A stretch of DNA of 64,000 nucleotides from Dehalococcoidia bacterium (GTDB lineage: Bacteria; Chloroflexota; Dehalococcoidia; Lucifugimonadales; JAGWBF01): assembly GCA_021295955.1 (NCBI GenBank), contig JAGWBJ010000005.1, forward strand, positions 19,276-83,275. Reading direction: 5' to 3'. Under the pieces are notes generated by a model. It was not told the origin of the DNA. It saw only the letters and a program-made list of their open reading frames with translations, and made no database searches. The stretch's first letter is position 1. Every line of letters begins with the position of its first letter. Positions 11,843 through 40,679 of the stretch are shown in pieces. Both the position numbers and the translations under genes were made by a program.

Positions 11843-11846
11843 ACAC

Positions 11847-13839: not shown

Positions 13840-13901
13840 CGGGGCCGGAGAACACTGGGCCCGAAGGTCCAAGGCACGGAAAGCAAAAAGGAGGGACAAT
13901 C

Positions 13902-14804
13902 ATGGTCGAAGTCGGCTCGGGGCCATACAGGTACGACGTGATAGAGGGCTGGGGGGCGCTGCCCGAGGGGATCTCCTTCGGAGTCGTGACGGGAGTGGTC
14001 GTGGACTCCCAGGAGCGGGTCATCGTATGCCAGCAGCAGATGGAGCCCCCGGTGATCGTCTTCGACCGGGAGGGCAACTACCTCACATCCTGGGGCGCAG
14101 GTCTGCTTCCCGAGCCCCACACCCTGTTCATCGACTCCAATGACATCGTCTACGTTCCCGACAGAGCGGCCCACGTGGCGATGAAGTTCACCGTCGAGGG
14201 CGAGCCCCTGATGGAGCTGGGCAACCGGGGCCAAGCCTCGGACACGGGATGCGAGGAGCACGAAGGGCCGGTGCTGAGAGCCGGGGGTCCCTTCAACGTG
14301 CCGACGCGCATGTCCCCGTCTCCCTCGGGGGACATCTACGTCTCCGACGGCTACAGGAACTGCCGGGTCCACCGGTTCTCGCCCGACGGCCAGCTCATCT
14401 CGTCGTGGGGGAAACCGGGCGAGACCGCCCCGGGAGAGATCCGCTCCCCCCACTGCCTCTGGGTCATGCCCGATGGAAAGGTCTACGTCTGCGACCGGCT
14501 GAACAACCGGATACAGATCTTCTCGCAGACCGGGGAGTTCATCGACCAGTGGAAGGGCCTCGACTGGCCCACTGACCTGTTCGTGGACGCCAACGGGGAC
14601 TTCTTCGTGGCCGAGAGGCCCAACCACGAGGCCCAGACCAACTCGATGGTCGTGCGCGACGGCTCGGGGCGCGAGAAGGCCCGCTGGGACACGCCCCGGA
14701 ACCACCAGACGTGGCACGATTCCCACGGCAACATGTTCCTGGTCATGGGGCAGCTCGCCGAGCCCCGGGACAAGGCCATCTACAAGTACGTCAGGAAGAC
14801 GTAG
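13902..14804 (+). CDS. NHL-repeat six-bladed beta-propeller protein, peptidyl-alpha-hydroxyglycine lyase (PAL)-like
   Basis: ATG at 13902 follows AAGGAGGG. Repeated propeller blades are present. VSDGYRNCRVHRF and VCDRLNNRIQIF resemble PAL-type motifs. No signal peptide. Confidence 0.8.
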   Translation: MVEVGSGPYRYDVIEGWGALPEGISFGVVTGVVVDSQERVIVCQQQMEPPVIVFDREGNYLTSWGAGLLPEPHTLFIDSNDIVYVPDRAAHVAMKFTVEGEPLMELGNRGQASDTGCEEHEGPVLRAGGPFNVPTRMSPSPSGDIYVSDGYRNCRVHRFSPDGQLISSWGKPGETAPGEIRSPHCLWVMPDGKVYVCDRLNNRIQIFSQTGEFIDQWKGLDWPTDLFVDANGDFFVAERPNHEAQTNSMVVRDGSGREKARWDTPRNHQTWHDSHGNMFLVMGQLAEPRDKAIYKYVRKT

Positions 14805-14815
14805 ACCGGCGGGGC

Positions 14816-15670: not shown

Positions 15671-15815
15671 GGCGCACCTCCCTTCGTTCGTCGCCCCATA
15701 CTCCCGTCGCGGGCGATACGGGGGTGCGAGAAGTGTAGCACTAGGTACGGATGGGGTTCAACTCATGTATTTGCCAATGCAACCATCCCGCGCCCCGTTC
15801 CATTTCCCCGGTTCT

Positions 15816-16035: not shown

Positions 16036-16049
16036 AAGGAGGCAGCCCA

Positions 16050-18764: not shown

Positions 18765-18979
18765 AGACCTCCCTCGTTCCGCCGGACTTCTATGCGCCCC
18801 TCAAGGAGGATTATAGCAACCGGCATCAAGGTTTGCACATGGTCTACCGTCAGACCGGGTGTCCGGCGGCGCCGTGAGAAAGAACGCTGGCGGCGGATGG
18901 CGGGCCGTTGCCGGTCACCGATAGCGGCGGCTTGTAATCTGTAACAGCCATGTACTACTATTGGTGCAGGAGGTGCCCT

Positions 18980-20122
18980 ATGGCAGAGAGCCCCCATCGT
19001 CAGGAGGCGGAGCATCACGACGATTCCGCCCATGATGATCCCTCAGGCCGCGCCCGTGCCGATCACGAAGGGCACGGCCACGACGAGCACGAGGGGCATG
19101 GCCATGCAGAGCACGAGGGGCACGGCCACGACGAGCACGAGGGCCACGGCCACGATGAGCACGAGGGCCACGACGAGCACGGTCACGCAGGGCACGACCA
19201 CGCCCACGACTTACGGGGCGCCAGCCGCCGCAGCCTGATCGTCGCCCTGGTGCTGATTAGCACCTACATGGTGGCGGAGGTGGTCGGCGGCGTCCTGTCA
19301 GGCAGCCTGGCGTTGCTGGCGGACGCCGGGCACATGCTCACCGACGCGGCGGCCATCACCATGGCCCTGGTGGCCATGTGGATTGCCCAGAAAGAGCCCT
19401 CGGTAGAGCGTACTTTCGGGTATCACCGCACCGAGATCCTCGCCGCGCTGGCCAACACCTTCGCCTTGTGGCTCATCGCCGGGTGGATCGTCTGGGAGGC
19501 CTACCACCGGGCCTTCAGGGAAGATGTCGAGGTGGTCGGCTTGCCGGTCCTCCTGGTAGGCATAGGCGGCTTCGTGATAAACGTGATCGCCGCATGGGTA
19601 CTGCACCGCTCCTCGGGGGAGAGCCTCAACGTGGAGGGCGCTTTCCAGCACGTGCTGGCGGACCTGCTGGGGTCCGTGGGCGTCATAATCTCTGCCGTAC
19701 TGATCATCGCATTCGAGTGGCACATAGCGGACCCGATTCTCAGCGTCGTCATCGCGGTCCTCATCGTGTACAACACCCGGAAGCTGATCGTCAACATACT
19801 TAATGTGCTGCTGGAGGGGAGCCCCGAGCGTATCGACGTTTACAAGCTGTGCCACGACATAGAGGAAATGGAAGGAGTTACCCTGATCCACGACGTTCAC
19901 GTCTGGACCATAACCTCAGGCAACGAGGCCTTCACCGCCCACGTGCTGTTGGACCCCGCCTACCAGGGCAACCTGGACGGGCTGATCAAAGGGATGCAAG
20001 ACCTGCTGCACAACGAGTATGGCATCGGCCACGCCACCATACAGGTGGAGCGGTCCGTGGAGGGTTGCACCGAGAACCACCACGTGGGCCACCTGCTGGC
20101 CTACGCCCGCTCTACGGGTTAA
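18980..20122 (+). CDS. cation diffusion facilitator (CDF) metal efflux transporter (CzcD/ZitB-like) with a His-rich N-terminal tail
   Basis: ATG at 18980 lies 6 nt after AGGAGG. CDF core motifs present (LLADAGHMLTDAAA, FGYHRTEILAALAN, HVLADLLGS, HDVHVWT). N-terminal HEGHGHDE octapeptide repeats. Confidence 0.92.
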   Translation: MAESPHRQEAEHHDDSAHDDPSGRARADHEGHGHDEHEGHGHAEHEGHGHDEHEGHGHDEHEGHDEHGHAGHDHAHDLRGASRRSLIVALVLISTYMVAEVVGGVLSGSLALLADAGHMLTDAAAITMALVAMWIAQKEPSVERTFGYHRTEILAALANTFALWLIAGWIVWEAYHRAFREDVEVVGLPVLLVGIGGFVINVIAAWVLHRSSGESLNVEGAFQHVLADLLGSVGVIISAVLIIAFEWHIADPILSVVIAVLIVYNTRKLIVNILNVLLEGSPERIDVYKLCHDIEEMEGVTLIHDVHVWTITSGNEAFTAHVLLDPAYQGNLDGLIKGMQDLLHNEYGIGHATIQVERSVEGCTENHHVGHLLAYARSTG

Positions 20123-22155: not shown

Positions 22156-23592
22156 ATGGCGCAGGAGCAGATCGCGTTGATGGCCCACCTTATGCGCCGG
22201 GCCGGTTTCGGGGCTAACAGGGACGAGCTGGAACGGTACGCGGCCCAGGGATACGAAGCGACGGTGGAGGACCTGCTCCATCCAGAGAAGGCCCCGCCTG
22301 CCCTGGAGGACGAGGACCTGATCAAGCGGTATCACGTCGACGAGAACGGCCTCCAGCCCCTGGATAGCTGCCAGACCTACTGGATATACCGCATGATCAA
22401 CACCAGGCGGCCCCTGGAGGAGAAGATGGCCCTCTTCTGGCACGGCATATTCGCCACGGGCTACACCAAGCTCAACCAGCCCAAGGCCATCCTCAACCAG
22501 CTTGGCATGTTTCGCCGGCACGGGCTGGGCAAGTTCAGCAACCTGCTGGTGGAGCTGTCCAAGGACCCGGCCATGATCTTCTGGCTGGACAACAAGGACA
22601 GCCACCGTTACGAGCCCAACGAGAACTACGGGCGCGAGCTGCTGGAGCTGTTCTCCATGGGTGTCGGCAACTACACCGAGCAGGACGTGTTCGAGGCGTC
22701 CAGGGCCTTCACCGGATGGACCATCCGGAACGCGGAGCTCCACACCTCCCGGGTGTCGCGGGACTCGGTCTGGCCCTACGGACGGCTGGACTGGCAGTTC
22801 GAGTACCGGGAAGACGACCACGACGACACAGAGAAGACGTTCCTGGGGCATACGGGGAACCTCAACGGCGAGGACGTGATTGACATAATCTGCCGCCAGG
22901 ACGCCGCCGCCCGGTTCATCTGCCGCCACCTGTACAACTTCTTCGTGGCCGACGAGCCGCAGGTGCCCGCTTGGGAGACGGTGCCTCCCCGGGACCCCGA
23001 AGCGGTACGGACGCTGACGGAGGCGTACTTCGAGCACGATTACGAGATACGGCCGGTGCTCCGGGTGTTGTTCAACTCGGACTTCTTCAAAGAGGCCGTC
23101 TTCCAAAAGATCAAGAGCCCGGCGGAGCTGGTGGCGGGCACCGCGCGGATGTCCGGCGGGTACGGCTTTCCGGCCCTCAAGGACATCGACCTCTCTCAGA
23201 AGGCGACCTTCATGGGCCAGAGCCTGCTGGACCCGCCCAGCGTGGAGGGATGGCACACGGGCACCGAGTGGATATACACCGGGGCCCTGGTCGACCGGGT
23301 GAACTTCGCCGTAGACGAGGTTGGCGACGCCACGCGGCCCGGAGTTCGCGCCATCCTCGACCGGGTACGGGGCCGTGGGGAGGACCTTTCGCCCGCCGAG
23401 CTGGTTGACGTGTGCCTGGACCTGCTGGGGCCGATGGACGTGTCGGACCGGACACGCCGCGAGCTGGTCGACCAGGCCTCCAGGCGGGGCGGCGCCCGGT
23501 TCGGCTCCGCCGACGGTGACGAAGATGCCACCAGGACGGTGCTGGAGGTCCTTCAGACCATCGTATCCACCCGCGAGTACCAGCTCGCCTAG
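22156..23592 (+). CDS. DUF1800 domain-containing protein (copy 1)
   Basis: Contains LMRRAGFG, LFWHGIFATGY, IFWLDN and NENYGRELLELFSMGVGNYTEQDV. No N-terminal signal sequence. Confidence 0.88.
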   Translation: MAQEQIALMAHLMRRAGFGANRDELERYAAQGYEATVEDLLHPEKAPPALEDEDLIKRYHVDENGLQPLDSCQTYWIYRMINTRRPLEEKMALFWHGIFATGYTKLNQPKAILNQLGMFRRHGLGKFSNLLVELSKDPAMIFWLDNKDSHRYEPNENYGRELLELFSMGVGNYTEQDVFEASRAFTGWTIRNAELHTSRVSRDSVWPYGRLDWQFEYREDDHDDTEKTFLGHTGNLNGEDVIDIICRQDAAARFICRHLYNFFVADEPQVPAWETVPPRDPEAVRTLTEAYFEHDYEIRPVLRVLFNSDFFKEAVFQKIKSPAELVAGTARMSGGYGFPALKDIDLSQKATFMGQSLLDPPSVEGWHTGTEWIYTGALVDRVNFAVDEVGDATRPGVRAILDRVRGRGEDLSPAELVDVCLDLLGPMDVSDRTRRELVDQASRRGGARFGSADGDEDATRTVLEVLQTIVSTREYQLA

Positions 23593-23671
23593 GGGCTGAC
23601 CGCCACGCCGGGGGGGACCTGTTGCAACCCGGCGCCACCGGGCGCCGTGGGGGTACGAGGAGGTGCGCAAG

Positions 23672-24685
23672 GTGCTATCCTTTCGCTACAGCCACACCGT
23701 TGGTTTCTATGCGCTGAACGGCCGCGGCTTCAACAACCCCGTGGACGTGGCCCTGGGACGGGACGGCAAGATGTTCGTCGCCAACCGGGCGGGGGCGGAC
23801 GTGGCCGCGAGGATGTTCTACAAGCGCATAACCGTATGCAATGTGGACGAGGAGTACTTCGGGGAGTTCAGCAGCGGCGGCACCGAGGACGGCCAGATTA
23901 TGTGGCCGGTCTCCATTGCCGTCGACCCGGATGAGAACATCTACGTGGCCGACGAGGCCCTGCAGCGCATCTCCGTCTTCGACAGGGACTGGAACTTCGT
24001 GCGAAAGTGGGGCTCCCAGGGGAGCGGAGACGGCGAGTTCGACCGGCCCGCGGGAATGGTGCTGCACCCGGACGGCAACCTGCTGGTGGCGGACGCCCTG
24101 AACCACCGGGTACAGCGGTACACGCCCGAGGGCCGCTTCCTGGGCGCCTTCGGCGGGCCGGGCGCCGGAGACGGCCAACTCCAGTTCCCGTGGGGAGTGG
24201 CCGTGGACCGGGCCGGGAACATCTACGTGTGCGACTGGCGCAACGACCGGGTCCAGAAGTTCGATGCCTCCGGGGAGCATCTCGCCACCTGGGGAGGCCC
24301 GGGAAGTGGCGACGGTGAATTCAACAGGCCCGCCGGCGTGGCGGTGGACGGGGACGGGCTGGTGTACGTGGCGGACTGGGGCAACGAGCGGGTCCAGGTG
24401 CTGACCCCGGACGGCGGCTTTCTGGCCAAGTTCCGGGGAGAGTCGGGGGTCTCCCAATGGGGGATGGACTACTTCATCGCCAACGAGGACGAGCTGGAGG
24501 AGCGGCACAGGGCCAACATGGAGCCCGGCCTGGACCCGTGGGCCCGGGACATACCCGCCGAGCAGTCGGCCAGTGTCGAGAAGCTGTTCTGGGGCCCGTC
24601 TTCCGTGAAAGTGGATGACCAGGGCAGGATCTACGTCGTAGAGGTCTGCCGCGCCCGCATCCAGGTGTACGTGAAGGAGCCCTAG
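23672..24685 (+). CDS. NHL-repeat beta-propeller protein (partner of DUF1800 copy 1)
   Basis: The GTG at 23672 (MLSFRYSHTVG, parallel to MLTYRYSHTIG of the paralogue) lies 9 nt after GAGGAGG; the track start at 23663 is an upstream in-frame GTG. Recurring GDGEF(D/N)RPAG and VAD..N.RVQ blades. Confidence 0.85.
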   Translation: MLSFRYSHTVGFYALNGRGFNNPVDVALGRDGKMFVANRAGADVAARMFYKRITVCNVDEEYFGEFSSGGTEDGQIMWPVSIAVDPDENIYVADEALQRISVFDRDWNFVRKWGSQGSGDGEFDRPAGMVLHPDGNLLVADALNHRVQRYTPEGRFLGAFGGPGAGDGQLQFPWGVAVDRAGNIYVCDWRNDRVQKFDASGEHLATWGGPGSGDGEFNRPAGVAVDGDGLVYVADWGNERVQVLTPDGGFLAKFRGESGVSQWGMDYFIANEDELEERHRANMEPGLDPWARDIPAEQSASVEKLFWGPSSVKVDDQGRIYVVEVCRARIQVYVKEP

Positions 24686-24753
24686 CCGCCGGCCTCCGCC
24701 AGGACCCACGCACCGCACCGCACCGCGGGGTCAGCCAGTCCAGGAGTGTGACC

Positions 24754-26157
24754 ATGGAGAAGAAGGACATCCCCTTCCTGTCTGCCGCCGAGCTCTCCAC
24801 CCGGATAAGCACCCGGGAGTTGTCTCCCATTGAGGCTACGGAGGCGTATCTCCAGCGCATCGACCTGCTGAATCCCACCCTTCACGCCTACCTGACGGTC
24901 TGCGCCGACGAGGCCATGGCCGCCGCCCGAGAGTCCGAGGCGGCCATGGCAAGGGGCGAGCACCGGGGACCGATGCACGGCATCCCCGTGACGATAAAGG
25001 ACCAGGTGAAGTCCAAGGGCATCCGGACCACTTGCGGGTCGCCCATCTTCTGGGACAACGTTCCCGACGAGGACGGCACCGTGCTGGCCAACCTGAAGAA
25101 GGCCGGCGCCATCCTGCTGGGCAAGGCCAACATGACCGAGTTCGGGACGACGGGCCTCTCCCATGCCATCGAGTTCCCCCGCAACCCCTGGGACCTGGAG
25201 CGGCATACGGGAGGGTCCAGCAGCGGGTCCGGGGCCGCCACCGCCGCCTTCATGTGCGCCACCTCTTTGGGCGAGGACACGGGCGGCTCGGTCAGGTTCC
25301 CGGCCGCGTGGTGCGGGCTGGTGGGCCTGCGGCCGTCCTACGGGAGGGTCAGCCGCTACGGCGTCATGCCCGGGGTGTGGTCCATGGACGCCATCGGCCC
25401 AATATCCCGCACGGTGCGGGACTGCGCCATGACCCTGGGCGCCATCGCCGGCCACGACCCCAGGGACGGCTACACGTGGGACGCGCCCGTGCCCGACTAT
25501 GTTGCGGCGTTGACCGGGGAGGTCCGCGGCCTGCGCGTCGGCGTCGTCACCGAGCAGATGGAGAGCCCTCTGGTCGACCCGGAGGTCCGTGACTCCGTGG
25601 CGGCCGCGGTCTCGAAGCTCACCGACCTGGGCCTTGAGGTGGAGGAGGTCTCCATACCTCTCTCCGTGCACCAGGGGACCATCTCCGGCGGGCTCCGTGT
25701 GGAGGCGCCGACCAACTACCGGCGGCTTCTGCTGGACCGACTCCAGGACATCCGCCACGACAACCGGATAGGCTACCTGGTGGGCAGCATCCTGCCGGCC
25801 CAAGCCTACTACAAGACTCAGAAGCTCCGCACTCTCCTGCGCCGGCAGGTGTTCGAAGCCTTGGAGAGGGTGGACCTGCTGGCGATGCCCACCAGCGGCG
25901 AGGCCGCCCAGCCCATCGTGCCCGACCCCGTGATCACCGGCAAGGACGGCACCAACCGTATCGGCCGCCTGCTCACGCCCCTCTTCAGCCTCGCCAACGT
26001 GACCGCCATCAGCGTGCCCTGCGGGTTCACCGCCGACGGTCTGCCCATAGCCCTGCAGCTCGCGGCGAAGCCTTTCCAGGAGGCCACGGTCCTCAACGCC
26101 GCCTACGCCTACGAGCAGGCCACCCCGTGGCACACCAGGCGGCCTCCGAACGTGTGA
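24754..26157 (+). CDS. amidase (amidase-signature family)
   Basis: Contains GIPVTIKDQV (Lys), GGSSSGSGAATAA (cis-Ser/Ser) and EDTGGSVRFPAAWCG. The ATG at 24754 lies 8 nt after AGGAG; the track start is the GTG at 24748. Confidence 0.92.
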   Translation: MEKKDIPFLSAAELSTRISTRELSPIEATEAYLQRIDLLNPTLHAYLTVCADEAMAAARESEAAMARGEHRGPMHGIPVTIKDQVKSKGIRTTCGSPIFWDNVPDEDGTVLANLKKAGAILLGKANMTEFGTTGLSHAIEFPRNPWDLERHTGGSSSGSGAATAAFMCATSLGEDTGGSVRFPAAWCGLVGLRPSYGRVSRYGVMPGVWSMDAIGPISRTVRDCAMTLGAIAGHDPRDGYTWDAPVPDYVAALTGEVRGLRVGVVTEQMESPLVDPEVRDSVAAAVSKLTDLGLEVEEVSIPLSVHQGTISGGLRVEAPTNYRRLLLDRLQDIRHDNRIGYLVGSILPAQAYYKTQKLRTLLRRQVFEALERVDLLAMPTSGEAAQPIVPDPVITGKDGTNRIGRLLTPLFSLANVTAISVPCGFTADGLPIALQLAAKPFQEATVLNAAYAYEQATPWHTRRPPNV

Positions 26158-26173: not shown

Positions 26174-27076
26174 CTACACGGACCAGATCTGGAGCCGCAT
26201 CTGGCCCCGGGCGGGGTTACGGGACCCGGCGAACCGCCGATCCAGCAGCCCGTTGACCCGCTTCAGCTTGTGCATGATGCCCTCGACCCGGTCCTGGACA
26301 CGGCGGGGCGCGTACGCCCCGGGATACAGCCGGCCGTAGGAGCGGGCCAGGGCGGGGTACTCCGCATTCAGGAACTCCAGGAAGTGCTCCTTGGTGCCCT
26401 CCTTCAGGTAGAGGGTGCTGCCGCCCAGGAACCGGGCCCCGTGGTCCGAGGCCGCCTTTGCCACGGCGCTCAGATTGCTCAACCCGTCGGTCATGCCGGG
26501 GATGATGGGGGCCACCAGCACGCCCGCGTTTACCCCCGCCTTCACCAGCATCTCCACGGCCCGCAGTCGCTGCGCCGGAGGCGCCGTCCCGGGCTCCAGT
26601 CTCCGCCACAGGTCCAAGTCCAGAGTCGTGATGCTGATGCAAACGGTGCCGCCGCCCCAGGCCGACAGGTCCGCCAGGACGTCCCGGTCCCTGACCACCA
26701 TGGTGCCCTTGGTGACCACACCCACGGGGCTGCCCCTGTCGGCGAAGGCCTGGAGGCACCGCCTAGTCAGGCGCCGGGCCCCCTCGATGGGCTGGTAAGG
26801 GTCCGTGGACGTGCCCACGGCCACCGTTTCGTACTTCCAGGAGGGCCGGGACAGCTCCTTCACGAGCAGCTCCGGGATGTTGGTCTTGATCGATATGACC
26901 CCCGTGAAGTCGCCGCCCGCCGTCATGTCCCGCAGCAGGTGGTAGCGCCGGGCGAAGCAGTAGTGGCAACCGTGGACGCACCCCTGGTAGGGGTTCAGGG
27001 ACCACCGGAAGTCCATCCCGTGGACCCGGTTGAGGGCGCTTGCCGACTGTATCTCTTCATACCGGACCCTGGTCAC
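26174..27076 (-). CDS. radical SAM protein (Rv2578c / SPL-like DNA-repair-photolyase-type family)
   Basis: CVHGCHYC (CxxxCxxC) near the N-terminus, preceded by LNPYQGC. 300 aa. Confidence 0.85.
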   Translation of the reverse strand: MTRVRYEEIQSASALNRVHGMDFRWSLNPYQGCVHGCHYCFARRYHLLRDMTAGGDFTGVISIKTNIPELLVKELSRPSWKYETVAVGTSTDPYQPIEGARRLTRRCLQAFADRGSPVGVVTKGTMVVRDRDVLADLSAWGGGTVCISITTLDLDLWRRLEPGTAPPAQRLRAVEMLVKAGVNAGVLVAPIIPGMTDGLSNLSAVAKAASDHGARFLGGSTLYLKEGTKEHFLEFLNAEYPALARSYGRLYPGAYAPRRVQDRVEGIMHKLKRVNGLLDRRFAGSRNPARGQMRLQIWSV

Positions 27077-27207
27077 TTTGCCACCTCCTCGCTCCTCTGG
27101 CCGTTCGTTGGGCTTGTGATAGAACAGACGTTCCGATTAGGAGAACACGCAGGCCCCGCCGGCGTCAATGACCGGGTGTCAGCCCGGCCCTCCTGGAGCG
27201 GCTCAGC

Positions 27208-27236
27208 TTTACAGACAACAGGCGATATGGTAGTCT
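27208..27236 (+). promoter_or_regulatory. candidate extended -10 promoter for the NHL triplet
   Basis: TTTACA (27208-27213), a 17-nt spacer ending in TGG, then TAGTCT (27231-27236). AAGGAGG lies just before the ATG at 27286. Confidence 0.45.
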
Positions 27237-27285
27237 GACCACGCCCCGAAGCCCACAGAAAACCCGCCTAGCAAGGAGGCTCCCC

Positions 27286-28122
27286 ATGCCCACGATGGTC
27301 GGAATGGGCGACTACGTCTACGAGTACCATGGAGACTGGGCCCGCCTTCCTGACGGACAGAGCTTCCAGACTCCCAGCGCGGTGGCCGTGGACTCCAGGG
27401 ACCGGGTGTACGTGTTCCAGAGGCAGGGGCCTCCCATCCTCGTCTTCGACCGGGACGGGTACCTGCGGGAGTCGTGGCCCCGGCGGCCGGGAGAGCTGGA
27501 GGACGCCCACTTCGTCTACGTCAGCCCCGACGACCACTTGTTCCTTACCGACCGGGACTCCCACCAGGTGCTCAAGTACACCACCGACGGGAAGCTGGTG
27601 ATGGCCCTGGGCAAGAGGTACCAAGCGGCCCTCCAGGCCCCCTTCAACCACCCGGCCGACGTGGGCGTGGCCCCCAACGGCGACCTGTACATCGCCGACG
27701 GGTACGGCAACTCCTCCGTCCACCGGTTTTCCAGCGACGGGGTCTACATCTCCTCCTTCGGCAGCCCCGGCACCGGGCCGGGGCAGTTCATGGTCCCCCA
27801 CGGCGTACGCGTGTCGAATGACGGCCGAGTGTTCGTCACCGACCGCGAGAACAACCGGGTGCAGGTCTTCGACTCCCGCGGCGAGTTCCTGACCCAGTGG
27901 ACTGGCCTCTACCGGCCCGCGGGCATACACATAGACGCCGCCCAGAACGTCTACGTCACCGACCACATCCCAAGGTTCAGCGTCCTGAACCTGGAGGGCG
28001 AGCTGCTGGCCCGCGGGCGCACCTTCGAGATCGGGCACAACATCTACAGCGACTCCAGGGGCGATCTCTACGCCGTGGACGTCCAGCTCTCCCGGGTCCA
28101 GAAGTTCGTGAAGGTGTCCTGA
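27286..28122 (+). CDS. PAL-like NHL-repeat beta-propeller protein, tandem paralogue 1 of 3 (278 aa)
   Basis: Contains IADGYGNSSVHRF and VTDRENNRVQVF. No signal peptide. Same length as the next two genes. Confidence 0.88.
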   Translation: MPTMVGMGDYVYEYHGDWARLPDGQSFQTPSAVAVDSRDRVYVFQRQGPPILVFDRDGYLRESWPRRPGELEDAHFVYVSPDDHLFLTDRDSHQVLKYTTDGKLVMALGKRYQAALQAPFNHPADVGVAPNGDLYIADGYGNSSVHRFSSDGVYISSFGSPGTGPGQFMVPHGVRVSNDGRVFVTDRENNRVQVFDSRGEFLTQWTGLYRPAGIHIDAAQNVYVTDHIPRFSVLNLEGELLARGRTFEIGHNIYSDSRGDLYAVDVQLSRVQKFVKVS

Positions 28123-28133
28123 AGGAGGCGCCA

Positions 28134-28970
28134 ATGGCCGTAGTCACCGGCACCGGCAACTACATGTACGAGCACCACCCCAACTGGGCCAGGCTTCCCC
28201 GGGGCCAGGACTGGCAGGGCCCCAGCTCCATCGCCGTCGACTCCAAGGACAGGGTGTACGTCTTCCAGCGTGGCGGACCTCCCATCCTGATATTCGAGCG
28301 CGAGGGGGACTTCGTCGGAGGCTGGCCCCGCAGGCCGAATCAGCTCGAGGACGCCCATCACATTTACATCAGCCCCGACGACTTCGTCTACCTGGCCGAC
28401 CGGGACGCCCACCAGGTGCTCAAGTTCACCACCGACGGGGAGCTGGTCATGGCCCTGGGGACCAGGCACCGTGCCTCACTCCAGGCGCCCTTCAACCACC
28501 CGTCGGATACCTGCGTGGCGCCCAACGGGGAGATATACATATCGGATGGGTACGGCAACTCCAGCGTCCACCGCTTCACTCCCGACGGCGAGCACATCGC
28601 CTCCTTCGGAAGTCCAGGAAGGGGGCCAGGGCAGTTCTGCGTGCCCCACAGCATCCGCGTCTCCGGCGACGGCCGCGTCTACGTGGCCGACCGGGAGAAC
28701 GACCGGGTCCAGGTGTTCACCCCCGAGGGGGAGTTCATCTCCCAGTGGACGGACCTGAAGTCCCCCATGGGGGTGCAGATCACGCCGGACAACGCGGTCA
28801 TAGTCACCGACCAGGTGCCTCGGTTCACGGTATTCTCCCTGGACGGCGACCTGCTGGCCCGGGGCCGGACCTTCGAGAATTGTCATAACGTCTTCACCAA
28901 CTCCAGGGGAGACTTCTACGGCGTGGACGCCCAACGGCGCCAGATCCAGCGGTTCGTCAAGATAACGTAA
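28134..28970 (+). CDS. PAL-like NHL-repeat beta-propeller protein, tandem paralogue 2 of 3 (278 aa)
   Basis: The ATG at 28134 lies 5 nt after AAGGAGG. Contains ISDGYGNSSVHRF and VADRENDRVQVF. The upstream part of the track ORF (27897-28133) is an out-of-frame overlap with paralogue 1. Confidence 0.88.
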   Translation: MAVVTGTGNYMYEHHPNWARLPRGQDWQGPSSIAVDSKDRVYVFQRGGPPILIFEREGDFVGGWPRRPNQLEDAHHIYISPDDFVYLADRDAHQVLKFTTDGELVMALGTRHRASLQAPFNHPSDTCVAPNGEIYISDGYGNSSVHRFTPDGEHIASFGSPGRGPGQFCVPHSIRVSGDGRVYVADRENDRVQVFTPEGEFISQWTDLKSPMGVQITPDNAVIVTDQVPRFTVFSLDGDLLARGRTFENCHNVFTNSRGDFYGVDAQRRQIQRFVKIT

Positions 28971-29002
28971 GGGCCCGGACATTCAAAAATAGGAGCAAGC
29001 TC

Positions 29003-29839
29003 ATGCCCATCGTCACCGGCACCGGCAACTACATGTACGAGCACCATCCCAACTGGGCCAAGCTCCCGCGCGGGCAGGACTGGCAGGGCCCCAGCTCCAT
29101 CGCCGTCGACTCCAAGGACCGGGTGTACGTCTTCCAGCGGGGCGGCCCCCCCATCCTTATATTCGAGAAGGACGGCGAGTTCGTGGGCGGCTGGCGGCGG
29201 AAGCCGGGCCAGCTGGACGACGCTCACCACATCTACATCAGCCCCGACGACTTCGTCTACCTGGCCGACCGAGACGCCCACCAGGTGCTCAAGTTCACCA
29301 CCGACGGGGAGCTGGTCATGGCCCTGGGGACCAGGCACCGGGCGTCGTTGCAAGCGCCATTCAACCACCCTTCGGACGCCTGCGTTGGGCCCAACGGCGA
29401 CATCTTCGTTTCCGACGGCTACGCCAACTCCAGCGTGCACCGCTTCAGCCCCGACGGCAAGCACATCGCCTCCTTCGGAAGCCCGGGCAGCGGCCCCGGA
29501 GAGTTCCGTGTGCCCCACAGCGTGCGGGTCTCCAGCGACGGCCGCGTCTACGTGGCCGACCGGGAGAACAGCCGGGTCCAGGTGTTCACCTCCGAGGGGG
29601 AGTTCCTCAGCGAGTGGACGGACATGAAGTCGCCCATGGGAGTGCAGATCACCCCGGACAACGCCGTAATCGTCACGGACCAGGTGCCGCGGTTCAGCGT
29701 CTTCTCTCTGGACGGCGAACTGCTGGCCCGCGGCCGCACCTTCGAGCAGTGCCACAACGTCTTCACCAACTCCGTTGGCGACTTCTACGGCGTGGACACC
29801 TCGCGGCGGCAGATCCAGCGGTACGTGAAGATCACCTGA
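29003..29839 (+). CDS. PAL-like NHL-repeat beta-propeller protein, tandem paralogue 3 of 3 (278 aa)
   Basis: The ATG at 29003 lies 7 nt after AGGAG. Contains VSDGYANSSVHRF and VADRENSRVQVF. Very similar to paralogue 2. Confidence 0.88.
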   Translation: MPIVTGTGNYMYEHHPNWAKLPRGQDWQGPSSIAVDSKDRVYVFQRGGPPILIFEKDGEFVGGWRRKPGQLDDAHHIYISPDDFVYLADRDAHQVLKFTTDGELVMALGTRHRASLQAPFNHPSDACVGPNGDIFVSDGYANSSVHRFSPDGKHIASFGSPGSGPGEFRVPHSVRVSSDGRVYVADRENSRVQVFTSEGEFLSEWTDMKSPMGVQITPDNAVIVTDQVPRFSVFSLDGELLARGRTFEQCHNVFTNSVGDFYGVDTSRRQIQRYVKIT

Positions 29840-30836
29840 AGCTGGGCATCACCCGGCCGGCGAACAGCTCCAGGGAGCGGAGCCCGGCCTCGAGGTCCAT
29901 GCCCGGCCAGATCATCCTGACCAGGGCGGTGTCGACTCCCAGGGAGCGGTACCGCTCCAGCTCCGCCGCGCACTCCTCGGGAGTGCCCACCAGGAACCGG
30001 TCCCTGGCAAGCTCGTCGAAGGACTGGTGGAAGGACTCGGCCCCGGGCAGGGCCTTGTCCTGCCCCCAACTTGCGTAGGCCTGGTACTTGCCTCCCAGGT
30101 ACGGCGCGGCTTGGCGCAGCGCCTCCCCGCGGTCTTCGTGCAGGTACACCTCCCGGCCCATGGGGAGGCCCGAAGGCGCCGCCCGTCCGGCCTGGGCGGC
30201 GGCCTCGTTGTACGCGCCGATCTGCTCCTTTATAGTCGCGTAGGTAGCGTGGGGGTTAATGTACCAGGTGTAGCCGTGGGCCGCCGCCCGCCTGATGGCC
30301 GGCTCCGAGTTGGCGGCCACCCACACGGGAGGGTGGGGCTTCTGCAGCGGCTTCAGCATGGAGCGGGCGCCCTTCAGCCGGAAGTGGGCTCCCTCGTGGG
30401 TCACCTCACCATCGGTCCACAGACGGGTCATCACCTCCAGGCACTCCATGAACCTGGAGACCCGCCGCCTGCGGTCGACGCCGAATGCCTGGTACTCCTC
30501 GTCCCGGTAGCCCAGGGCGGCGCTGAGTATGAACCTGCCGCCGGTGATGACGTCCATGGTGGCCACGCGCTCCGCCAGGTCCACGGGATGGTGGACCGGG
30601 ACCAGCAACGTCGCCACCATCTCCATCCCCTCGGCCTCGGCCGACAGCCTGGCCAGGAGGGGCATGACCTGGAGCTGCTGGTAGGGGTGGGTGAGGTAGT
30701 GCTGGCCCTGGTAGACGAGCTGGAAGCCCATGTCCCGGGCGGCCCTCACGTACTCGACGATCTCCTGGAACCGCCGACGCATGTCCTGGCCCGCGGGTTG
30801 CTGTCCCATCCCCGACAGGGATATTCCGAACTTCAT
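29832..30836 (-). CDS. LLM-class (luciferase-like) flavin-dependent oxidoreductase
   Basis: From the ATG at 30836 (after GGGAGG): MKFGISLSGMGQQ...GFQLVYQGQHYL, the typical LLM N-terminus. The track ORF extension to 31070 overlaps the end of fhs. Confidence 0.85.
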   Translation of the reverse strand: MKFGISLSGMGQQPAGQDMRRRFQEIVEYVRAARDMGFQLVYQGQHYLTHPYQQLQVMPLLARLSAEAEGMEMVATLLVPVHHPVDLAERVATMDVITGGRFILSAALGYRDEEYQAFGVDRRRRVSRFMECLEVMTRLWTDGEVTHEGAHFRLKGARSMLKPLQKPHPPVWVAANSEPAIRRAAAHGYTWYINPHATYATIKEQIGAYNEAAAQAGRAAPSGLPMGREVYLHEDRGEALRQAAPYLGGKYQAYASWGQDKALPGAESFHQSFDELARDRFLVGTPEECAAELERYRSLGVDTALVRMIWPGMDLEAGLRSLELFAGRVMPSFR

Positions 30837-32727: not shown

Positions 32728-33612
32728 TCAAACGGCGGGGGGAGTCGAGCCGGCCGGGACATCCCCGGGGGGGCGGGCCGTGCGGCGCCTTCGGGACGCC
32801 CCGAACTGGCGTCTCAGGCCCGAGTAAACCAGGGCGGCGACGAAGAGGGCCGCCGACAGGAGGACCACGCTGGCGCCCGAGGAGACGTCGATCCACCAGC
32901 TCACGTATATGCCCGTCAACCCGCAGAATGCCCCCACGCCCGTGGACAGGACCACCATCCGGCGGAAGCTGTTGGTCAGGAGCCGCGCCACGATGGGGGG
33001 GATCACGATGGCCGCCGCGATGAGGGTGGCCCCCAGCACCTGCAGCGAGACTACGATGGTGGCTGCCAGCACGAGGGAGAACATGGCGTCTATCCAGCCG
33101 GTGGGCACGCCGTAGAACCGGGCCACCTCCTGGTCGAAGGTGGCGAAGAGCAGCAGCTTGAAGCCCAGGAAGACGATCACCACCGCGGCCGCGCTGACGG
33201 CCGCGATGGCCGCCAGGTCCCCCGGGGAGACCCCCAGGATGTTGCCGAAGAGGGCCGCCTCGAAGTCCCTGGTGAAGGTCTTGTACCGGCTGATAACGGC
33301 CACGCCGATGGCGAAGCTCGAGGTGGTTATGATGCCTATGGCCGCGTCGGCTCCGATCTGCCTCTTCCGGGTCGTGAGGGTGATGAGCAGGGCCGTCAGG
33401 AACCCCCAGATGCTGGCCCCCACGAAGAACCCCATGAAGGGTATCACGTAGCTGACCACGGCCCCCCCGAAGACCGCGTGGGCCATGCCGTGGCCGATGT
33501 ACGACATGCGCCGGAGGACTATGTAGACCCCCATCAGGCCGCACAGTCCGCCGGCCAGGGTCGTGGCCGCTATTCCCAGGACGAAGAAGTCGTACCGGAA
33601 GGGATCAAACAC
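32728..33612 (-). CDS. metal ABC transporter permease (ABC-3, ZnuB/MntB/TroC-like)
   Basis: 294 aa, highly hydrophobic, containing MSYIGHGMAHAVFGG. 8-nt overlap with the upstream ATPase gene. Confidence 0.88.
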   Translation of the reverse strand: MFDPFRYDFFVLGIAATTLAGGLCGLMGVYIVLRRMSYIGHGMAHAVFGGAVVSYVIPFMGFFVGASIWGFLTALLITLTTRKRQIGADAAIGIITTSSFAIGVAVISRYKTFTRDFEAALFGNILGVSPGDLAAIAAVSAAAVVIVFLGFKLLLFATFDQEVARFYGVPTGWIDAMFSLVLAATIVVSLQVLGATLIAAAIVIPPIVARLLTNSFRRMVVLSTGVGAFCGLTGIYVSWWIDVSSGASVVLLSAALFVAALVYSGLRRQFGASRRRRTARPPGDVPAGSTPPAV

Positions 33613-34483
33613 CGTCGGGTCCCTCCCCTATTCCCTCCTCCTGCTGTAGAGGCTGGCCCTCTCCGTTGGAGCCCCCGTTGGACCCAAAATGATGGGGGCT
33701 CTCGGCCACCAGGGTCATGCCCTGGTACCGGATCACGGGCATCTCGGCGCCGTACGTCAGGCGGAAGGTCTCCTCGGTGAACACCTGGGAGGGCGGCCCC
33801 TGGTCCACCAGTCGTCCGTTGAGGCACACCACCCACGGCAGGTGGGCGGCCACGGAGTTGATCTCGTGGGTCGTCATCACTATGGTCACGCCCTGGTGGT
33901 TCAGGTCGTGGAGGAGGTGCATCATGTCGTCCCGGGTCTTGATGTCCACCCCAGAGGTGGGCTCGTCCAGGAGCAGCAGCGACGGGCTGCTGACCAGGGC
34001 CCTGGCGAGGAACGCCCTCTGCTGCTGCCCGCCGGACAGCTCCTGGATGTGGCGCCCGGTCAGGTGGGAGATGCCCAGGCGCTCCAGCATCTCCAGGGCC
34101 AGCTTGCGCTCCCGGCGCCCGTACCACGGGAACAGCAGGTTCTCCATGGTGCGCCCCATCATGACGACCTCTTCCACCGTGACGGGGAAGTTCCAGTCGA
34201 TGGTCTCAAGCTGGGGCACGTAGCCGGCCCTGGGCCTGCGCCGGTCGGTGGGCGTCCCATCGACCAGGACCCTGCCCTCGTAGACATCCACCGCCCCCAG
34301 TATGGACCGCAGCAGGGTGGTCTTTCCCGACCCGCTGGGCCCCAGCAGCCCTACGAACTCGCCCGGGGCCACCGACAGGCTGACGTCGGACAGGACGGGC
34401 TGGCCGTCGTAGCCGCAGGTGAGGCCCTGGACCTCGATGATGGGCTCGGCGGCGGGGTGCTGGTGTGGAAACGGGTGAAGCAT
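33605..34483 (-). CDS. metal ABC transporter ATP-binding protein (ZnuC/MntA/TroB-like)
   Basis: Walker A GPSGSGKTTLL, signature LSGGQQQRAFLARAL, Walker B LLLLDEPTSGVD. Confidence 0.9.
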   Translation of the reverse strand: MLHPFPHQHPAAEPIIEVQGLTCGYDGQPVLSDVSLSVAPGEFVGLLGPSGSGKTTLLRSILGAVDVYEGRVLVDGTPTDRRRPRAGYVPQLETIDWNFPVTVEEVVMMGRTMENLLFPWYGRRERKLALEMLERLGISHLTGRHIQELSGGQQQRAFLARALVSSPSLLLLDEPTSGVDIKTRDDMMHLLHDLNHQGVTIVMTTHEINSVAAHLPWVVCLNGRLVDQGPPSQVFTEETFRLTYGAEMPVIRYQGMTLVAESPHHFGSNGGSNGEGQPLQQEEGIGEGPDGV

Positions 34484-34505
34484 CTGTATCCCCCTGTGAC
34501 TCGGG

Positions 34506-35525
34506 CTACTGGGGGTACCTTGCCTTGCTGGCGCCCTCGAACACGGGCCCGGGGTCGAACCCGGCCAGGGCGTCGGCGCTTCCTCCCAGGGCCCCGATCA
34601 TTACCTCCATGTTCTGCAGCATGAGGCCCAGGTACGAGTGCCTGGGACCGCCAGGCTCTCCCGGCAGGTCGTCGTCGGCAAGGCCGTCCACGAAGGCCGC
34701 GCCGCCCTCTTTGGCGATCCGCTCCATCACATCACTGGGGAACACCTCGGAGCCGAACACCGCCGGCACCCCCAGCTCTCCCACCTGGTCGATGAGCCGT
34801 CCCACCTCCCTGGCCGAGGGCTCGGAGAAGTCCGAGGGTTGGACGGCGCCGACCACCTCCATGCCGTAGCGGCCGGCGAAATAGGCCCACGAGTCGTGGT
34901 AGGTGAGGAGACGGCGGTTGGCGGCGGGGACCGTCTCCACGGCGGCGGCGATGCGTCCGTCCAGATCCTCTATGCGTGCCTCGAAGGCGTCGTAGTTTTC
35001 GCTGTAGTAGGCCTCGTTCCGCGGGTCCAGCCGCACCAGCTCGTCCCGGACCAGCTCGGCGTACCGGAGGCCGAGAAGCGGGTCCGGCCACAGGTGGGGG
35101 TTGGGATGCCCGCCGGACTCGGGAAAGGAGAAGTCGAACCGCCACTCCTCACGGGTGACCGTCCGCTCCCCCAGGGACAGAATGACGGCGTCGCTTCGCT
35201 TGCCTGCCTTTGCCAGCTCCAGGGTGGGCTCCTCCAGGAAGAGGCCGTTGAGGACTATGAGGTCCGCTTCGGCCAGGAGCCGGGACACCGAGGGGGCGGG
35301 CTCGAAGGTGTGGGAGTTGACCCCCTCGGGCACGACACCCTCCAGGTCTATCCGGGCCCCGCCGATGTTCTCGACGATGCTGGTGATGGGTGACACGGTG
35401 GTTATCACCTTCAGGGGGGCGGCGTCCGCCCCATCGCCTGGGGGCGGCGCCGTCGACTCGGCCCCGCAGCCCAGCAACGCCAGGAGCAGGAAGGGGACGA
35501 CGAATAGGGCCGGCCGGCGGATCAC
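34506..35525 (-). CDS. metal ABC transporter substrate-binding lipoprotein (ZnuA/TroA family)
   Basis: The GTG at 35525 gives (M)IRRPALFVVPFLLLALLGCGAES, a lipoprotein signal with a lipobox Cys. The track start (TTG at 35624) lies upstream of a good promoter -10 and is therefore unlikely. Confidence 0.85.
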   Translation of the reverse strand: MIRRPALFVVPFLLLALLGCGAESTAPPPGDGADAAPLKVITTVSPITSIVENIGGARIDLEGVVPEGVNSHTFEPAPSVSRLLAEADLIVLNGLFLEEPTLELAKAGKRSDAVILSLGERTVTREEWRFDFSFPESGGHPNPHLWPDPLLGLRYAELVRDELVRLDPRNEAYYSENYDAFEARIEDLDGRIAAAVETVPAANRRLLTYHDSWAYFAGRYGMEVVGAVQPSDFSEPSAREVGRLIDQVGELGVPAVFGSEVFPSDVMERIAKEGGAAFVDGLADDDLPGEPGGPRHSYLGLMLQNMEVMIGALGGSADALAGFDPGPVFEGASKARYPQ

Positions 35526-35603
35526 GATACGGTACGGCTTGGCGCTAGTCCGCAAATATAGCCTAATGCGATTATTGGCATGTGCAACGCCTTTCGCCTG
35601 CCG

Positions 35604-35631
35604 AGTATAGCACATAGCCTGCAATTGTCAA
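35604..35631 (-). promoter_or_regulatory. candidate promoter of the metal ABC operon
   Basis: On the minus strand: TTGACA (35626-35631), a 16-nt spacer ending in TGC, TATACT (35604-35609). The AT-rich palindrome TAATGCGATTA (35564-35574) lies in the predicted leader. Confidence 0.4.
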
Positions 35632-38366: not shown

Positions 38367-39185
38367 TCATCCCCGGGGCTGCCAGCTCACCACCATGGGG
38401 GTGAGCTCAGGCGTGCCCCGTATCCGGAAGATGCCGTCCTCTTCCACCAGCAAGCCCGGCAGGCTCTCCTCCAGCAGTTTCTGCTTCTCGCCTCCGGGAG
38501 CCAGGTACAGACGCGCTGTAAGCTGCCCCACGGCGTCCTCTACGGAGTCGAAGCCCCTGGAGGGGTGGGGCGGGAGGGGGTCGAACCGGGCGTCCACGCC
38601 CATCTCCTGCAGGACCTCTCTGAGCTCCGGGACGGCGGGAAGCTGCAGCCGCTCTTCTCCGTGGACAAGCTCCCACAGGGGCGAGTTCTGGAACTGGGGC
38701 GATCGGTCGTACAGGACGACCTGCACCTTGCGGCGGGCATGGTCGTTCAGCTTCCTCACGAATACGTCGACGTCGTGGACCACGTACAGTACGTGACAGC
38801 ACAGGACCACGTCGGCCGGCTCCACCTCCGCGTCCTCCCACCGGGCCTCGACCAGGGACACGTTGCCGATGCCGTGGGTCCGGGCCTCGTCCAGGAGGAC
38901 CGAGCCCATGCTCTGGGAGGGTTCCACCGCTACTACCTGGCCGCAACTGAGGGCCAGGGCCAGGGCCAGCCTGCCCCCTCCGGCGCCCACGTCCATCACC
39001 CGGTCTTCGGGCCTGACATCCTCCAACAGCCGGTCCAAGAGCTCATCGTCGGTCCTGAGCGGGTCGGCCCGAAAGTTCTCGGCGTAGGGCTTCCAGTGAT
39101 CGGAGGGAGGGGCCTCCCACCGGGCCCTGTCCGATTGGGCGTGCTCGGCCTCGACCATCCGCTGCCAGCGTTCCGCAGCGTTCAC
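38367..39185 (-). CDS. class I SAM-dependent methyltransferase
   Basis: Motif [16 protein letters not shown]. The GTG at 39185 overlaps the upstream stop (GTGA). The track ORF extension to 39440 overlaps the MsrB domain region in another frame. Confidence 0.82.
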
Positions 39186-40399
39186 AGGGACCCCTCGCGC
39201 ACGAACCTCATGGAGATGGAGTTGACGCAATGACGGGTGTTGGTCCCGGTAAGCCCCTCTCCCACGAACACGTGACCCAGGTGCCCGCCACAGGCGGCGC
39301 ACTCGATCTCCGTCCGGAATCCGTCCGGATCGGGCAAACGGTTCACCGCTCCGGGCACCTCCCTGTCGAAGGCGGGCCAGCCGCAACGGGCGTCGAACTT
39401 GTCGGCCGACCTGTACAACTCGGCGTCGCACCTGCGACACACGTAGGTGCCCGGCTCGTAGAAGTCGTCGTACTCCCCCGTGAAGGGAGGTTCCGTGCCC
39501 TTGCGCTCGATTACGTACCGCTCCCGGTCGGACAGGGGGTTGTAGCTTGGCTTCCGCGTCTCCATCAGCCAGCCACGGACCGCCGCCAGGAAGCCTCCCG
39601 GGTTATCCTCGAACACCATGTGGGCCGCCTGCGGGACCTCGGCCAGCCGGCCGTCGGGCAGTACGTCCAGCATGCGCCGGGCAACCTCGGGAGCCAGCAG
39701 GTCCGTTTCCACGCCGCGGACTATCAGGGTGGGACACTCGACCGACGCCAGCAGGGGCCACATGTCGGGAGGCTGGGCTCCCGTGCCGTGCCGCACCTGC
39801 TCTCGGATGGCCAGGTCGTACAGCCAGCCGATCTTTCCGCCGTCCATCTTCCGCGTCGAGTGGGCGAGCCTGCGGCGCAGAAGGGGCTCCGGTGTAAGGG
39901 GGTTCTCGGCGCTCATGTACTCGACCACGTCCTCGAAGGAGTCGAACTCCTCGGGCACGGCCACCATCTCGGCGCGTATCCGGTCGATGCCCCGCTGGTC
40001 GGACTCGGCGCCGACGTCCACCATGACCAGCTTCTCCACTCTGTCGGGGAACCGCGCGGCGAAGTTGACCGCATTCTGGCCTCCCATGGAGTGCCCCACC
40101 AGCACGAAGGGCTCCAAAGCGAGTGCCTCGCTGAGGGCCTCCAGGTCGGCCACGTAGGCCTGGGTGCTGTAGTCGCCGTCCGAGGCCCAATCGCTGCCGC
40201 CTCGGCCCCGCTGGTCCACCGCCAGGACGTGGTAGTCGCCGCACATGGCCGAAGAGAAGTCGTCCCACGAGTGGCGATGGCCCCGCAGTCCGTGGAGCAG
40301 CACCATGGGGGTCTTCCCTTCAGTGCCCCAGTCCAGGTAGCTGAGCCTGATGCCATTGGCGGTGACGGTCCTCTCCCGGGCCTGCTTCAGGGTGGTCAT
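39182..40399 (-). CDS. msrB: alpha/beta hydrolase fused in frame to peptide-methionine (R)-S-oxide reductase MsrB
   Basis: From the ATG at 40399: [25 protein letters not shown]...VGHSMGG...FLAAVRGWL, followed directly by [11 protein letters not shown]...CRRC...[12 protein letters not shown]...RHCVNS (MsrB zinc CxxC pairs and catalytic Cys). No stop codon between the two domains. Confidence 0.8.
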
Positions 40400-40473
40400 G
40401 CCTAGCCTCCCGACATTCGATGGGGTGGTCCGAGGCCAGTATAACACGGGGGGGCCGGAGCCCCTCACCCCAA

Positions 40474-40496
40474 CCCCTCTCCCCCGGGGAGAGGGG
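40474..40496. repeat. 23-bp near-perfect palindrome CCCCTCTCCCC-C-GGGGAGAGGGG in a divergent intergenic region
   Basis: Arms at 40474-40484 and 40486-40496 are exact reverse complements. Preceded by CCCCTCACCCCAA. Confidence 0.9.
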
Positions 40497-40679
40497 CTAT
40501 GGACGGCGTTGACTGGCTGTCTCGGGCGCACTAGACTGGGAACAATCCCAGACGCCTGACTACGGCTGTCGCCGTCGCGCGGGAGCACGATTCCATGCAG
40601 CAAACAATCTCCCCTGCGGGAAGCCATGCACCACGGGGCCGTCGCCCGCGATGCCGCCCGCAGTCCCACTCCAAGACCG

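Follow-up and report, generated by a model that had tools for sequence, protein, structure and literature searches.

What function could be served by three genes of equal length that lie head to tail in a bacterial genome and whose products resemble one half of an animal enzyme? The question is raised by a stretch of 64,000 nucleotides from a Dehalococcoidia bacterium (assembly GCA_021295955.1, contig JAGWBJ010000005.1, positions 19,276 to 83,275), called the window below, in which the genes N1 (27286..28122), N2 (28134..28970) and N3 (29003..29839) each encode a six-bladed NHL propeller of 278 aa that resembles the alpha-amidating lyase for peptidyl-alpha-hydroxyglycine (PAL). A more distant relative, N4, lies elsewhere in the window. 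In animals and algae, PAL is known to make up the second half of the peptide-amidating enzyme (PAM), and the Dehalococcoidia and SAR202 are thought to degrade recalcitrant organic matter. The answer that we favour, with a probability of roughly 0.55, is that N1-N3 are cytoplasmic, zinc-dependent lyases of the PAL type, which are encoded in an operon, would act between an oxygenase and an amidase in one pathway, and would differ in the acyl groups they accept.

The three genes are co-directional on the + strand and 837 nt long each, with spacers of 11 nt (N1/N2) and 32 nt (N2/N3), just as a sequence-only reading of the window had described them. The Shine-Dalgarno sequences that it saw before each gene are present as well, namely AAGGAGG at 27273-27279 for N1 and at 28122-28128 for N2, and AGGAG at 28991-28995 for N3; these purine-rich sites stand 6-8 nt upstream of the starts, and that of N2 overlaps the stop codon of N1. 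The list of open reading frames (ORFs) also holds a longer, GTG-started version of N2 (27897-28970). The start of N2 is taken as the ATG at 28134 because it has its own Shine-Dalgarno sequence and matches the 278-aa gene called in L001, a syntenic metagenome contig from the ENA whose entire neighbourhood corresponds to that of the window, with proteins about 85-91% identical. N1-N3 are real genes, as is evident from their third-position GC content of 0.78-0.93 (the DNA overall has 67% GC), from dN/dS values of 0.10-0.13 against the L001 orthologues, and from thousands of homologues of 277-278 aa. They probably form one operon, which is the simplest arrangement because the spacers are tiny, and the intergenic stretch of 27077..27285 between N1 and a divergent radical SAM gene presumably holds the promoter of the array. 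Promoter, terminator and Rfam scans of the array and its surroundings gave no sigma-70 consensus, no terminator above chance and no Rfam match. A hydrophobic stretch is absent from the N-termini, and in the N3 model residues 4-15 are part of the propeller strands; this agrees with the earlier statement that a signal peptide is missing, and a cytoplasmic location of the predicted proteins is supported by sequence and model alike. On the opposite strand, a long ORF at 28916-29755 has equivalents in 44 loci; this ORF is not a gene but the shadow cast by a conserved, GC-rich coding strand.

The fold of the products is clear. Pfam reports NHL repeats (PF01436; 89-100 bits versus a cutoff of 20) together with DUF5128, an assignment at the superfamily level that is silent on function, and no NCBIfam model scores above its cutoff for the array genes. 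The AlphaFold model of N3, made from a family alignment of 32 sequences, is all-beta and arranges 24-25 strands in six blades (pLDDT 94.7, pTM 0.92). When the PDB was searched with Foldseek, rat PAL (3fvz) ranked third with a TMq of 0.83 and a probability of 1.00, and Thin, TRIM2/3/71 and Brat have NHL domains that scored equal to it; TRIM-NHL, Thin, Brat and the designed Pizza propellers together span a TMq of 0.75-0.83. Hence, the fold cannot tell an enzyme from a scaffold, and the structure search that had been proposed as a check on the PAL assignment yielded a strong match to the PAL core, but an equally good one to non-enzymatic domains.

Sequence comparison is more specific. In the PDB sequence searches, PAL alone among the structures gave a single long match that is collinear: phmmer aligned residues 75-204 of N3 with 94-233 of 3fvz (E 2e-22), and the family profile aligned residues 38-207 with PAL (3fvz, 5wm0; hmmsearch E 3e-31). 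The scores of the TRIM and Thin structures stem from a single query repeat (residues 148-203) that is aligned to each of the six target blades. The C-terminal 84 aa of N3 gave no PAL match in this search at E up to 10. Animal PAM fragments were retrieved from a protein database with a PAL fragment that served as bait only, and were then aligned. The bacterial family and nine animal PAL fragments were matched by hhalign at 99.9% (E 1.5e-32) over 223 collinear columns, covering residues 50-276 of N3, and the residue pairings of the alignment were repeated, including that of the C-terminal histidine beyond the reach of phmmer. The homology of N1-N3 to the PAL core thus extends beyond the NHL repeat, as had been supposed: the sole collinear match in the PDB, the hhalign result and the invariant residues all bear on it. 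Two other assignments were considered and rejected. ScyF (NCBIfam NF035926) reached 92-163 bits against a cutoff of 350 with partial coverage, and the virginiamycin B (streptogramin B) lyase Vgb (PF24684, NF000022) reached 21-24 bits, where the cutoffs are 50 and 600, with a Foldseek TMq of 0.63-0.68. Vgb and ScyF/ScyE are beta-propellers with weak sequence matches, their active sites differ, and the window proteins have no PEP-CTERM signal.

The conserved residues are those expected of a PAL active site. H75, Y140, H172, R187 and H251 (N3 numbering) are invariant between the bacterial and the animal PAL sequences, and the columns fall in the PAL blocks LPHG, DGYCNSR, VPHS, DRENGR and MPHD. 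An alignment of the zinc-binding histidines and the catalytic tyrosine and arginine, which the sequence-only reading had suggested, found all five kept in N3; N1 and N2 have the same catalytic set, and R46 is the sixth column in all three genes. The motif DGYGNSSVHRF is found in N1 and N2 and DGYANSSVHRF in N3, as had been noticed; the second motif is V(T/A)DREN(N/D/S)RVQVF, where the first position is always V and never the I that had been allowed as an option. In the rat PAL structure described by Chufan et al. in 2009, zinc is reportedly held by His585, His690 and His786, while Tyr654 is said to be the base and Arg706 and Arg533 to bind the substrate. H75, H172 and H251 of N3 are taken here to be the counterparts of His585, His690 and His786, Y140 that of Tyr654 and R187 that of Arg706, in the rat numbering. 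Residue 75 of N3 aligns with residue 585 of the 976-residue PAM chain 5wm0, and the rat PAM sequence fits five residues named for human PAM with a constant offset of 3 (PMC10303134). Arg703 of human PAM lies at the active site and binds the substrate (PMC10303134).

The full set R46-H75-Y140-H172-R187-H251 is intact in 84 of the 96 NHL-type ORFs that were compared from the window and from 83 related loci, the source being about 80 genomes that belong to many phyla, where Y140 and R187 lie inside the patterns used for the locus scan, so that conservation at these two columns is partly by construction. R46 (VFQRGG) is kept in most relatives and is Gln in N4; the animal fragments do not include this region, and HMMER placed the segment on another stretch of PAL. 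Two generic NHL genes of the same window (23663-24685 and 43344-44366) carry E-A-W-A-W in columns one to five, and the sixth residue is absent as well. In the N3 model, each of the three histidines stands where an innermost strand begins, in blades 2, 4 and 6, and Y140, R187 and R46 end second strands, which by propeller topology would put all six residues on one face near the axis.

How common are such genes? Among the candidates, 4,595 clusters match at E up to 1e-10; the best matches are almost all of 277-278 aa and 61-68% identical to N3, and those that are labelled come mostly from Chloroflexi/SAR202 metagenomes. Species-representative genomes gave at least 597 matches; among the matches listed from them Dehalococcoidia dominate, and the other hosts include Methylomirabilota, Reyranella, other Alphaproteobacteria, Poribacteria, Pirellulaceae, Acidobacteriota, Dormibacteraeota and Bathyarchaeia. 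A profile search of 1.84 billion representatives returned 156,503 matches (E up to 1e-3) and 17,208 matches (E up to 1e-30); these numbers were rejected as counts of the family, as they describe NHL repeats generally and are swamped by giant multi-repeat proteins. One family copy is present in 78 of the 83 loci compared, and the triple array was seen only in the window and in L001. A single locus (L023) has a tandem pair, the second copy of which (8826-9674) carries Met in place of R46 and Leu in place of H251, and may be inactive or repurposed. NCBI and JGI already give the family PAL-related names based on homology, the JGI name being that of the wrong half of PAM. This large family has its database names already; its annotation is not new, and the three-gene arrangement is uncommon. 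The literature search gave no paper that links the PAL-like family to SAR202, and a preprint that uses ‘NHL’ for a nitrile-hydratase leader peptide is irrelevant to NHL propellers.

The three copies do not have the same age. N2 and N3 are 87.4% identical in protein and 86.1% in DNA, and N1 is 63.7% and 61.9% identical to N2 and N3 in protein and 73.0% and 71.8% in DNA. Orthologues of the window and L001 are 88-91% identical, with a synonymous divergence (dS) of 0.53-0.62 and a dN/dS (omega) of 0.10-0.13; for example, N1 has 90.6% identity and an omega of 0.098, and N2 has 88.8% and 0.114. The N2/N3 pair has a dS of 0.47 and an omega of 0.16. Likewise, N1 was compared with N2 and N3 (62-64% identity), giving a dN of about 0.28-0.29, a dS of 0.65-0.73 that is near saturation, and an omega of 0.38-0.45. 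In a neighbour-joining tree without bootstrap, N2 and N3 sit on a separate long branch, each of them next to its counterpart from L001, and N1 nests inside the mainstream clade of the family. Tree and dS values together suggest that the array joins an old paralogue, N1, to a later duplicate, the N2/N3 duplication being about as old as the split between the window and L001. The array had been called recently amplified; this does not hold, since L001 already has the triple array, the N2/N3 dS of about 0.47 is near that of the orthologues, and N1 is on an older branch. Judged by these substitution rates, all three copies are under purifying selection in two lineages.

The sequence-only reading had further proposed that the substrate pockets are diversifying. 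There are 63 positions that are fixed differently among the paralogues and conserved between the window and L001, including 47, 76, 141, 173, 249 and 250, and such changes adjoin five of the six catalytic residues as well as occupying the position equivalent to Met784 of PAL. The changes at 5 of 12 catalytic-flanking positions against a background of 23% are, however, no significant excess, and all pairs are under purifying selection. The comparison is only suggestive of altered pockets among N1-N3.

The gene neighbourhoods of the family point to catabolism. ORFs at no more than 4 kb from family members in the other loci were subjected to unbiased clustering, and the recurrent neighbours are luciferase-like (LLM) genes in 16 loci (with a second cluster of 5), amidase genes in 15 and SDR genes in 11, followed by peptide ABC transporter, GGT-like, MFS, enolase-superfamily and enoyl-CoA hydratase genes. 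Both LLM and amidase genes reach a density next to family members that is 4-5 times that farther out. Within the first 1 kb there are 15 LLM genes (13 on the same strand), or 9.3 per 100 kb versus about 1.9 at 2-8 kb, and seven amidase genes (six on the same strand), or 4.4 per 100 kb versus about 1.2; the control consists of the outer parts (2-8 kb) of the same loci, and the counts ignore the kinship of the genomes. Tight pairs with an amidase gene (gaps of 30-225 nt) are seen in Dehalococcoidia, Reyranella, Hyphomicrobiaceae and Dormibacteraeota. As a separate observation, judged by eye, the PAL-like gene adjoins a 659-aa ORF resembling copper amine oxidase in L010, L011, L013 and L015 (about 4400-7850 in each), which belong to one Dehalococcoidia clade. 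A 432-aa ORF resembling sulfite-oxidase-type molybdoenzymes is seen by eye in L011, L013, L015 and L074, and not in L010, and an MFS transporter gene and an LLM gene appear by eye in some of these loci.

The comparison with known systems shows what is shared with the animal enzyme and what is not. PAL is a zinc enzyme with a six-bladed propeller and releases glyoxylate (PMC6529398). Animal PAL and the window proteins are alike in the six-bladed NHL propeller, in their collinear sequences, in the equivalents of the zinc histidines, Tyr654 and Arg706, and in the blocks DGYxNS, VPH and DRENxR(V/I)Q, at an identity of about 23-29%. Unlike animal PAL, the window proteins are stand-alone and, as predicted, cytoplasmic, without a signal peptide, membrane anchor, PHM domain or nearby PHM gene. 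They are also about 50 residues shorter, have none of the PAL loop insertions of about 40 residues in all (317 alignment columns for 278 residues), and do without the cysteines that PAL has in FCQPT, DGYCNSR and LCVADRENGRIQCF. Ureidoglycolate lyase of the AllA type (PF04115) performs the same type of reaction, in which an N-substituted alpha-hydroxyglycine gives urea and glyoxylate, but its cupin-type fold is unrelated, and it is not homologous to the window proteins. Similarly, MdgL of the methylguanidine pathway is a bacterial cytoplasmic lyase that speeds hemiaminal breakdown after an oxygenase step (PMC12508155). By its authors' account MdgL is not homologous to PAL in sequence, and it is partnered by a 2-oxoglutarate/Fe dioxygenase (PMC12508155); the two-step logic is the same as that proposed here for the PAL-like lyases.

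The fold, the PAL homology, the conservation of the catalytic residues, the purifying selection and the catabolic neighbourhood are supported directly. The metal, the reaction and the pathway of N1-N3 we infer by analogy with animal PAL. H75, H172 and H251 would hold zinc at the centre of one propeller face, and Y140, as the base, would deprotonate the alpha-hydroxyl of an N-substituted alpha-hydroxyglycine (a carbinolamide), the carboxylate of which would be held by R187 and probably also by R46. The bond between N and C-alpha would then break to give a primary amide or urea-type product and glyoxylate. The hydroxylated intermediate would come from a non-copper oxygenase, possibly an LLM-class flavoenzyme where an LLM gene is the co-directional neighbour, and an adjacent amidase would convert the amide to acid and ammonia. 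The acyl groups accepted would differ from copy to copy. In the window, the upstream amidase is a possible downstream enzyme acting on the putative amide product.

Several points weigh against this account, in addition to the partly built-in conservation of two columns and the kinship among the counted loci. At position 249, the equivalent of Met784, N1 has I, N2 has N and N3 has Q, while relatives have G, A, S, Y, R or T, and the equivalent of the calcium-site Asp787 (252) is Asn in N1-N3 and Gln, Gly, Ala or Cys in relatives; Met784 and Asp787 may be features of the animal enzyme that do not necessarily define the wider family. R46 is presumed to correspond to Arg533 from strand topology and the rat sequence. 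No PHM-type copper monooxygenase gene was found within 10 kb of the array or among the recurrent neighbours, a whole-genome search not having been made, and no hydroxylating partner for the array was found there. The LLM gene of the window is convergent and not co-transcribed, and is most like F420-dependent reductases, while the amidase gene is parted from the array by a gene on the opposite strand and directly follows a non-PAL propeller gene. Hydroxyglycine adducts decay spontaneously above neutral pH (PMC6529398), so a cytoplasmic enzyme seems less necessary, although with MdgL bacteria do have a lyase devoted to a comparable hemiaminal (PMC12508155). Finally, the bacterial members had been called essentially uncharacterised, and the literature search indeed gave no biochemical study of one.

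Among the other explanations, the one that deserves most attention, although we judge it rather unlikely, is that the PAL-type metal site has been kept for other chemistry (another hemiaminal, a hemiacetal, an ester elimination or a hydrolysis) on an unrelated substrate. The wide variation at the Met784 equivalent and the lack of a PHM partner nearby would be expected from it, and so would the diverse neighbours (SDR, enolase-superfamily, enoyl-CoA hydratase, GGT-like and copper amine oxidase-like genes); moreover, propellers with weak similarity, known here from below-cutoff matches, differ in reaction, as do the lyase Vgb and the lactonase SGL. Such a change of chemistry is harder to reconcile with the conservation of the whole PAL catalytic set, metal ligands and base included, and with the adjacency of amidases, which fits an amide product, as well as with the position of N4 near a ureidoglycolate lyase and enzymes of the ureide/hydantoin type. 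The least probable of all is a role as non-catalytic scaffolds that bind protein, RNA or a ligand in the manner of TRIM-NHL, Thin and Brat. The top summed PDB scores and Foldseek ranks do belong to TRIM, Thin and Brat, and Pfam gives only NHL and DUF5128, but the PDB scores come from the one repeat that matches every blade. TRIM-NHL, Thin, Brat and the designed Pizza propellers share the fold and the repeat motif, bind RNA or protein, and have no site of three histidines, Tyr and Arg, whereas in the PAL-like family this set is invariant across phyla, and the generic NHL paralogues in the window go without it. The family proteins are, in addition, single-domain and encoded among catabolic genes.

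The divergently adjacent radical SAM gene, together with the fact that PAL makes peptide amides, invites the idea of C-terminal amidation of peptides that are made by the ribosome and modified after translation (RiPPs); that RiPP pathways use other enzymes for this step (PMC12912966) was counted in its favour. The radical SAM protein, however, resembles the Rv2578c/PA0069 family and not a RiPP maturase, and its gene accompanies the family nowhere but in the syntenic L001; neither a precursor peptide nor a protease or exporter was seen, the recurrent neighbours are catabolic, and this idea is very improbable. Gene dosage alone might also explain why three redundant copies are kept, as their catalytic residues are identical, their lengths equal and their operon apparently single. 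Such an explanation is improbable, though less so than amidation of RiPPs: N1 shares only 62-64% identity with N2 and N3, belongs to another branch and has no sign of homogenisation, and the 63 paralogue-fixed positions, some of them near catalytic residues, are conserved between two genomes.

A large prokaryotic family with the full PAL catalytic set and without the copper hydroxylase partner implies a putative bacterial use of PAL chemistry. A broader view, which we hold to be doubtful, is that PAL-like lyases are the second step of a copper-independent, cytoplasmic route of oxidative N-dealkylation that is widespread in Dehalococcoidia/SAR202 and other oligotrophs. An LLM-class flavin oxygenase or another oxygenase would hydroxylate the alpha-carbon of N-acyl- or N-carbamoyl-glycine-type compounds, the PAL-like lyase would split the carbinolamide to glyoxylate and an amide, an amidase encoded next to it would set ammonia free, and, if the view is true, sets such as N1-N3 would widen the acyl range and give access to amide nitrogen from refractory dissolved organic matter. 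The link to amidase and LLM genes offers a hypothesis for the release of nitrogen and glyoxylate from N-substituted glycines, and the triple array provides three naturally diverged variants in which substrate ranges can be compared. Stand-alone, soluble bacterial PAL enzymes might also help to make peptide amides. The advance would lie in biochemistry, since annotation by homology already exists.

Around the array, the order of genes is a His-rich CDF transporter, an aminotransferase, DUF1800, N5, the amidase, the radical SAM gene, N1-N3, the LLM gene, formate-tetrahydrofolate ligase and a ZnuABC-type transporter. The flanking amidase, radical SAM and LLM genes that the sequence-only reading had named were confirmed by Pfam, and N5 (23663-24685), a generic NHL gene without any of the PAL residues, had been missing from it; no neighbour scores above the cutoff of a specific NCBIfam model. 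The amidase-signature enzyme (24748..26157, + strand; PF01425, E 5.5e-111; no NCBIfam model above cutoff) lies 1.1 kb upstream of the array. The Rv2578c/PA0069-like radical SAM gene (26174..27076, - strand; PF04055; NCBIfam 258 bits, below the cutoff of 430) is probably unrelated to the array. The LLM-class flavin/F420 oxidoreductase gene (29832..30836, - strand; PF00296, E 3.6e-55) has F420-dependent LLM families as its best NCBIfam matches, below cutoff, and its 3' end overlaps that of the convergent N3 by 8 nt.

N4 (13902..14804, + strand) encodes a distant PAL-like paralogue of 300 aa with 39-42% protein identity to N1-N3, in which the catalytic set is intact except for the Gln at the R46 column; the motif DGYRNCRVHRF, which had been noted for this relative, is present. 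N4 belongs to a cluster of genes for enzymes that act on C-N bonds (4284-16607), which consists of a fused hydantoinase/oxoprolinase gene (4284-8087), an ArgE/DapE-type M20 deacylase gene (8109-9374), an interposed pyruvate kinase gene (9352-10809), genes for a CoA-transferase III (11565-13073) and DUF1028 (13126-13839), an alpha/beta hydrolase gene on the - strand (14816-15670), and a PF04115 ureidoglycolate lyase-like gene (15669-16607) at 0.9 kb from N4.

Other features of the window are recorded as side observations. DUF1800 (477-478 aa) and a 340-aa canonical NHL propeller without the PAL residues occur together twice (22156-24685 and 41917-44366), each pair being followed by amide-bond enzymes, namely the amidase at 24748-26157 and hydantoinase A/B at 44501-48570; a DUF1800 gene is also near the family in L001, L027 and L033. 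A second amidase-signature gene (61595-63022, 475 aa) has AtzE-family and generic amidases as its best NCBIfam matches, below cutoff. The CDF gene with a long His/Asp/Glu-rich N-terminus is at 18950-20122 and a ZnuA/ABC-3 metal uptake system at 32728-35624; that these genes supply zinc to the PAL-like enzymes is speculation, and ZnuABC genes stand beside the family only in L001. Lastly, a 604-aa ORF at 39182-40996 (- strand; start codon as listed) appears to be an unusual fusion of an alpha/beta hydrolase with a C-terminal SelR (methionine sulfoxide reductase B) domain.

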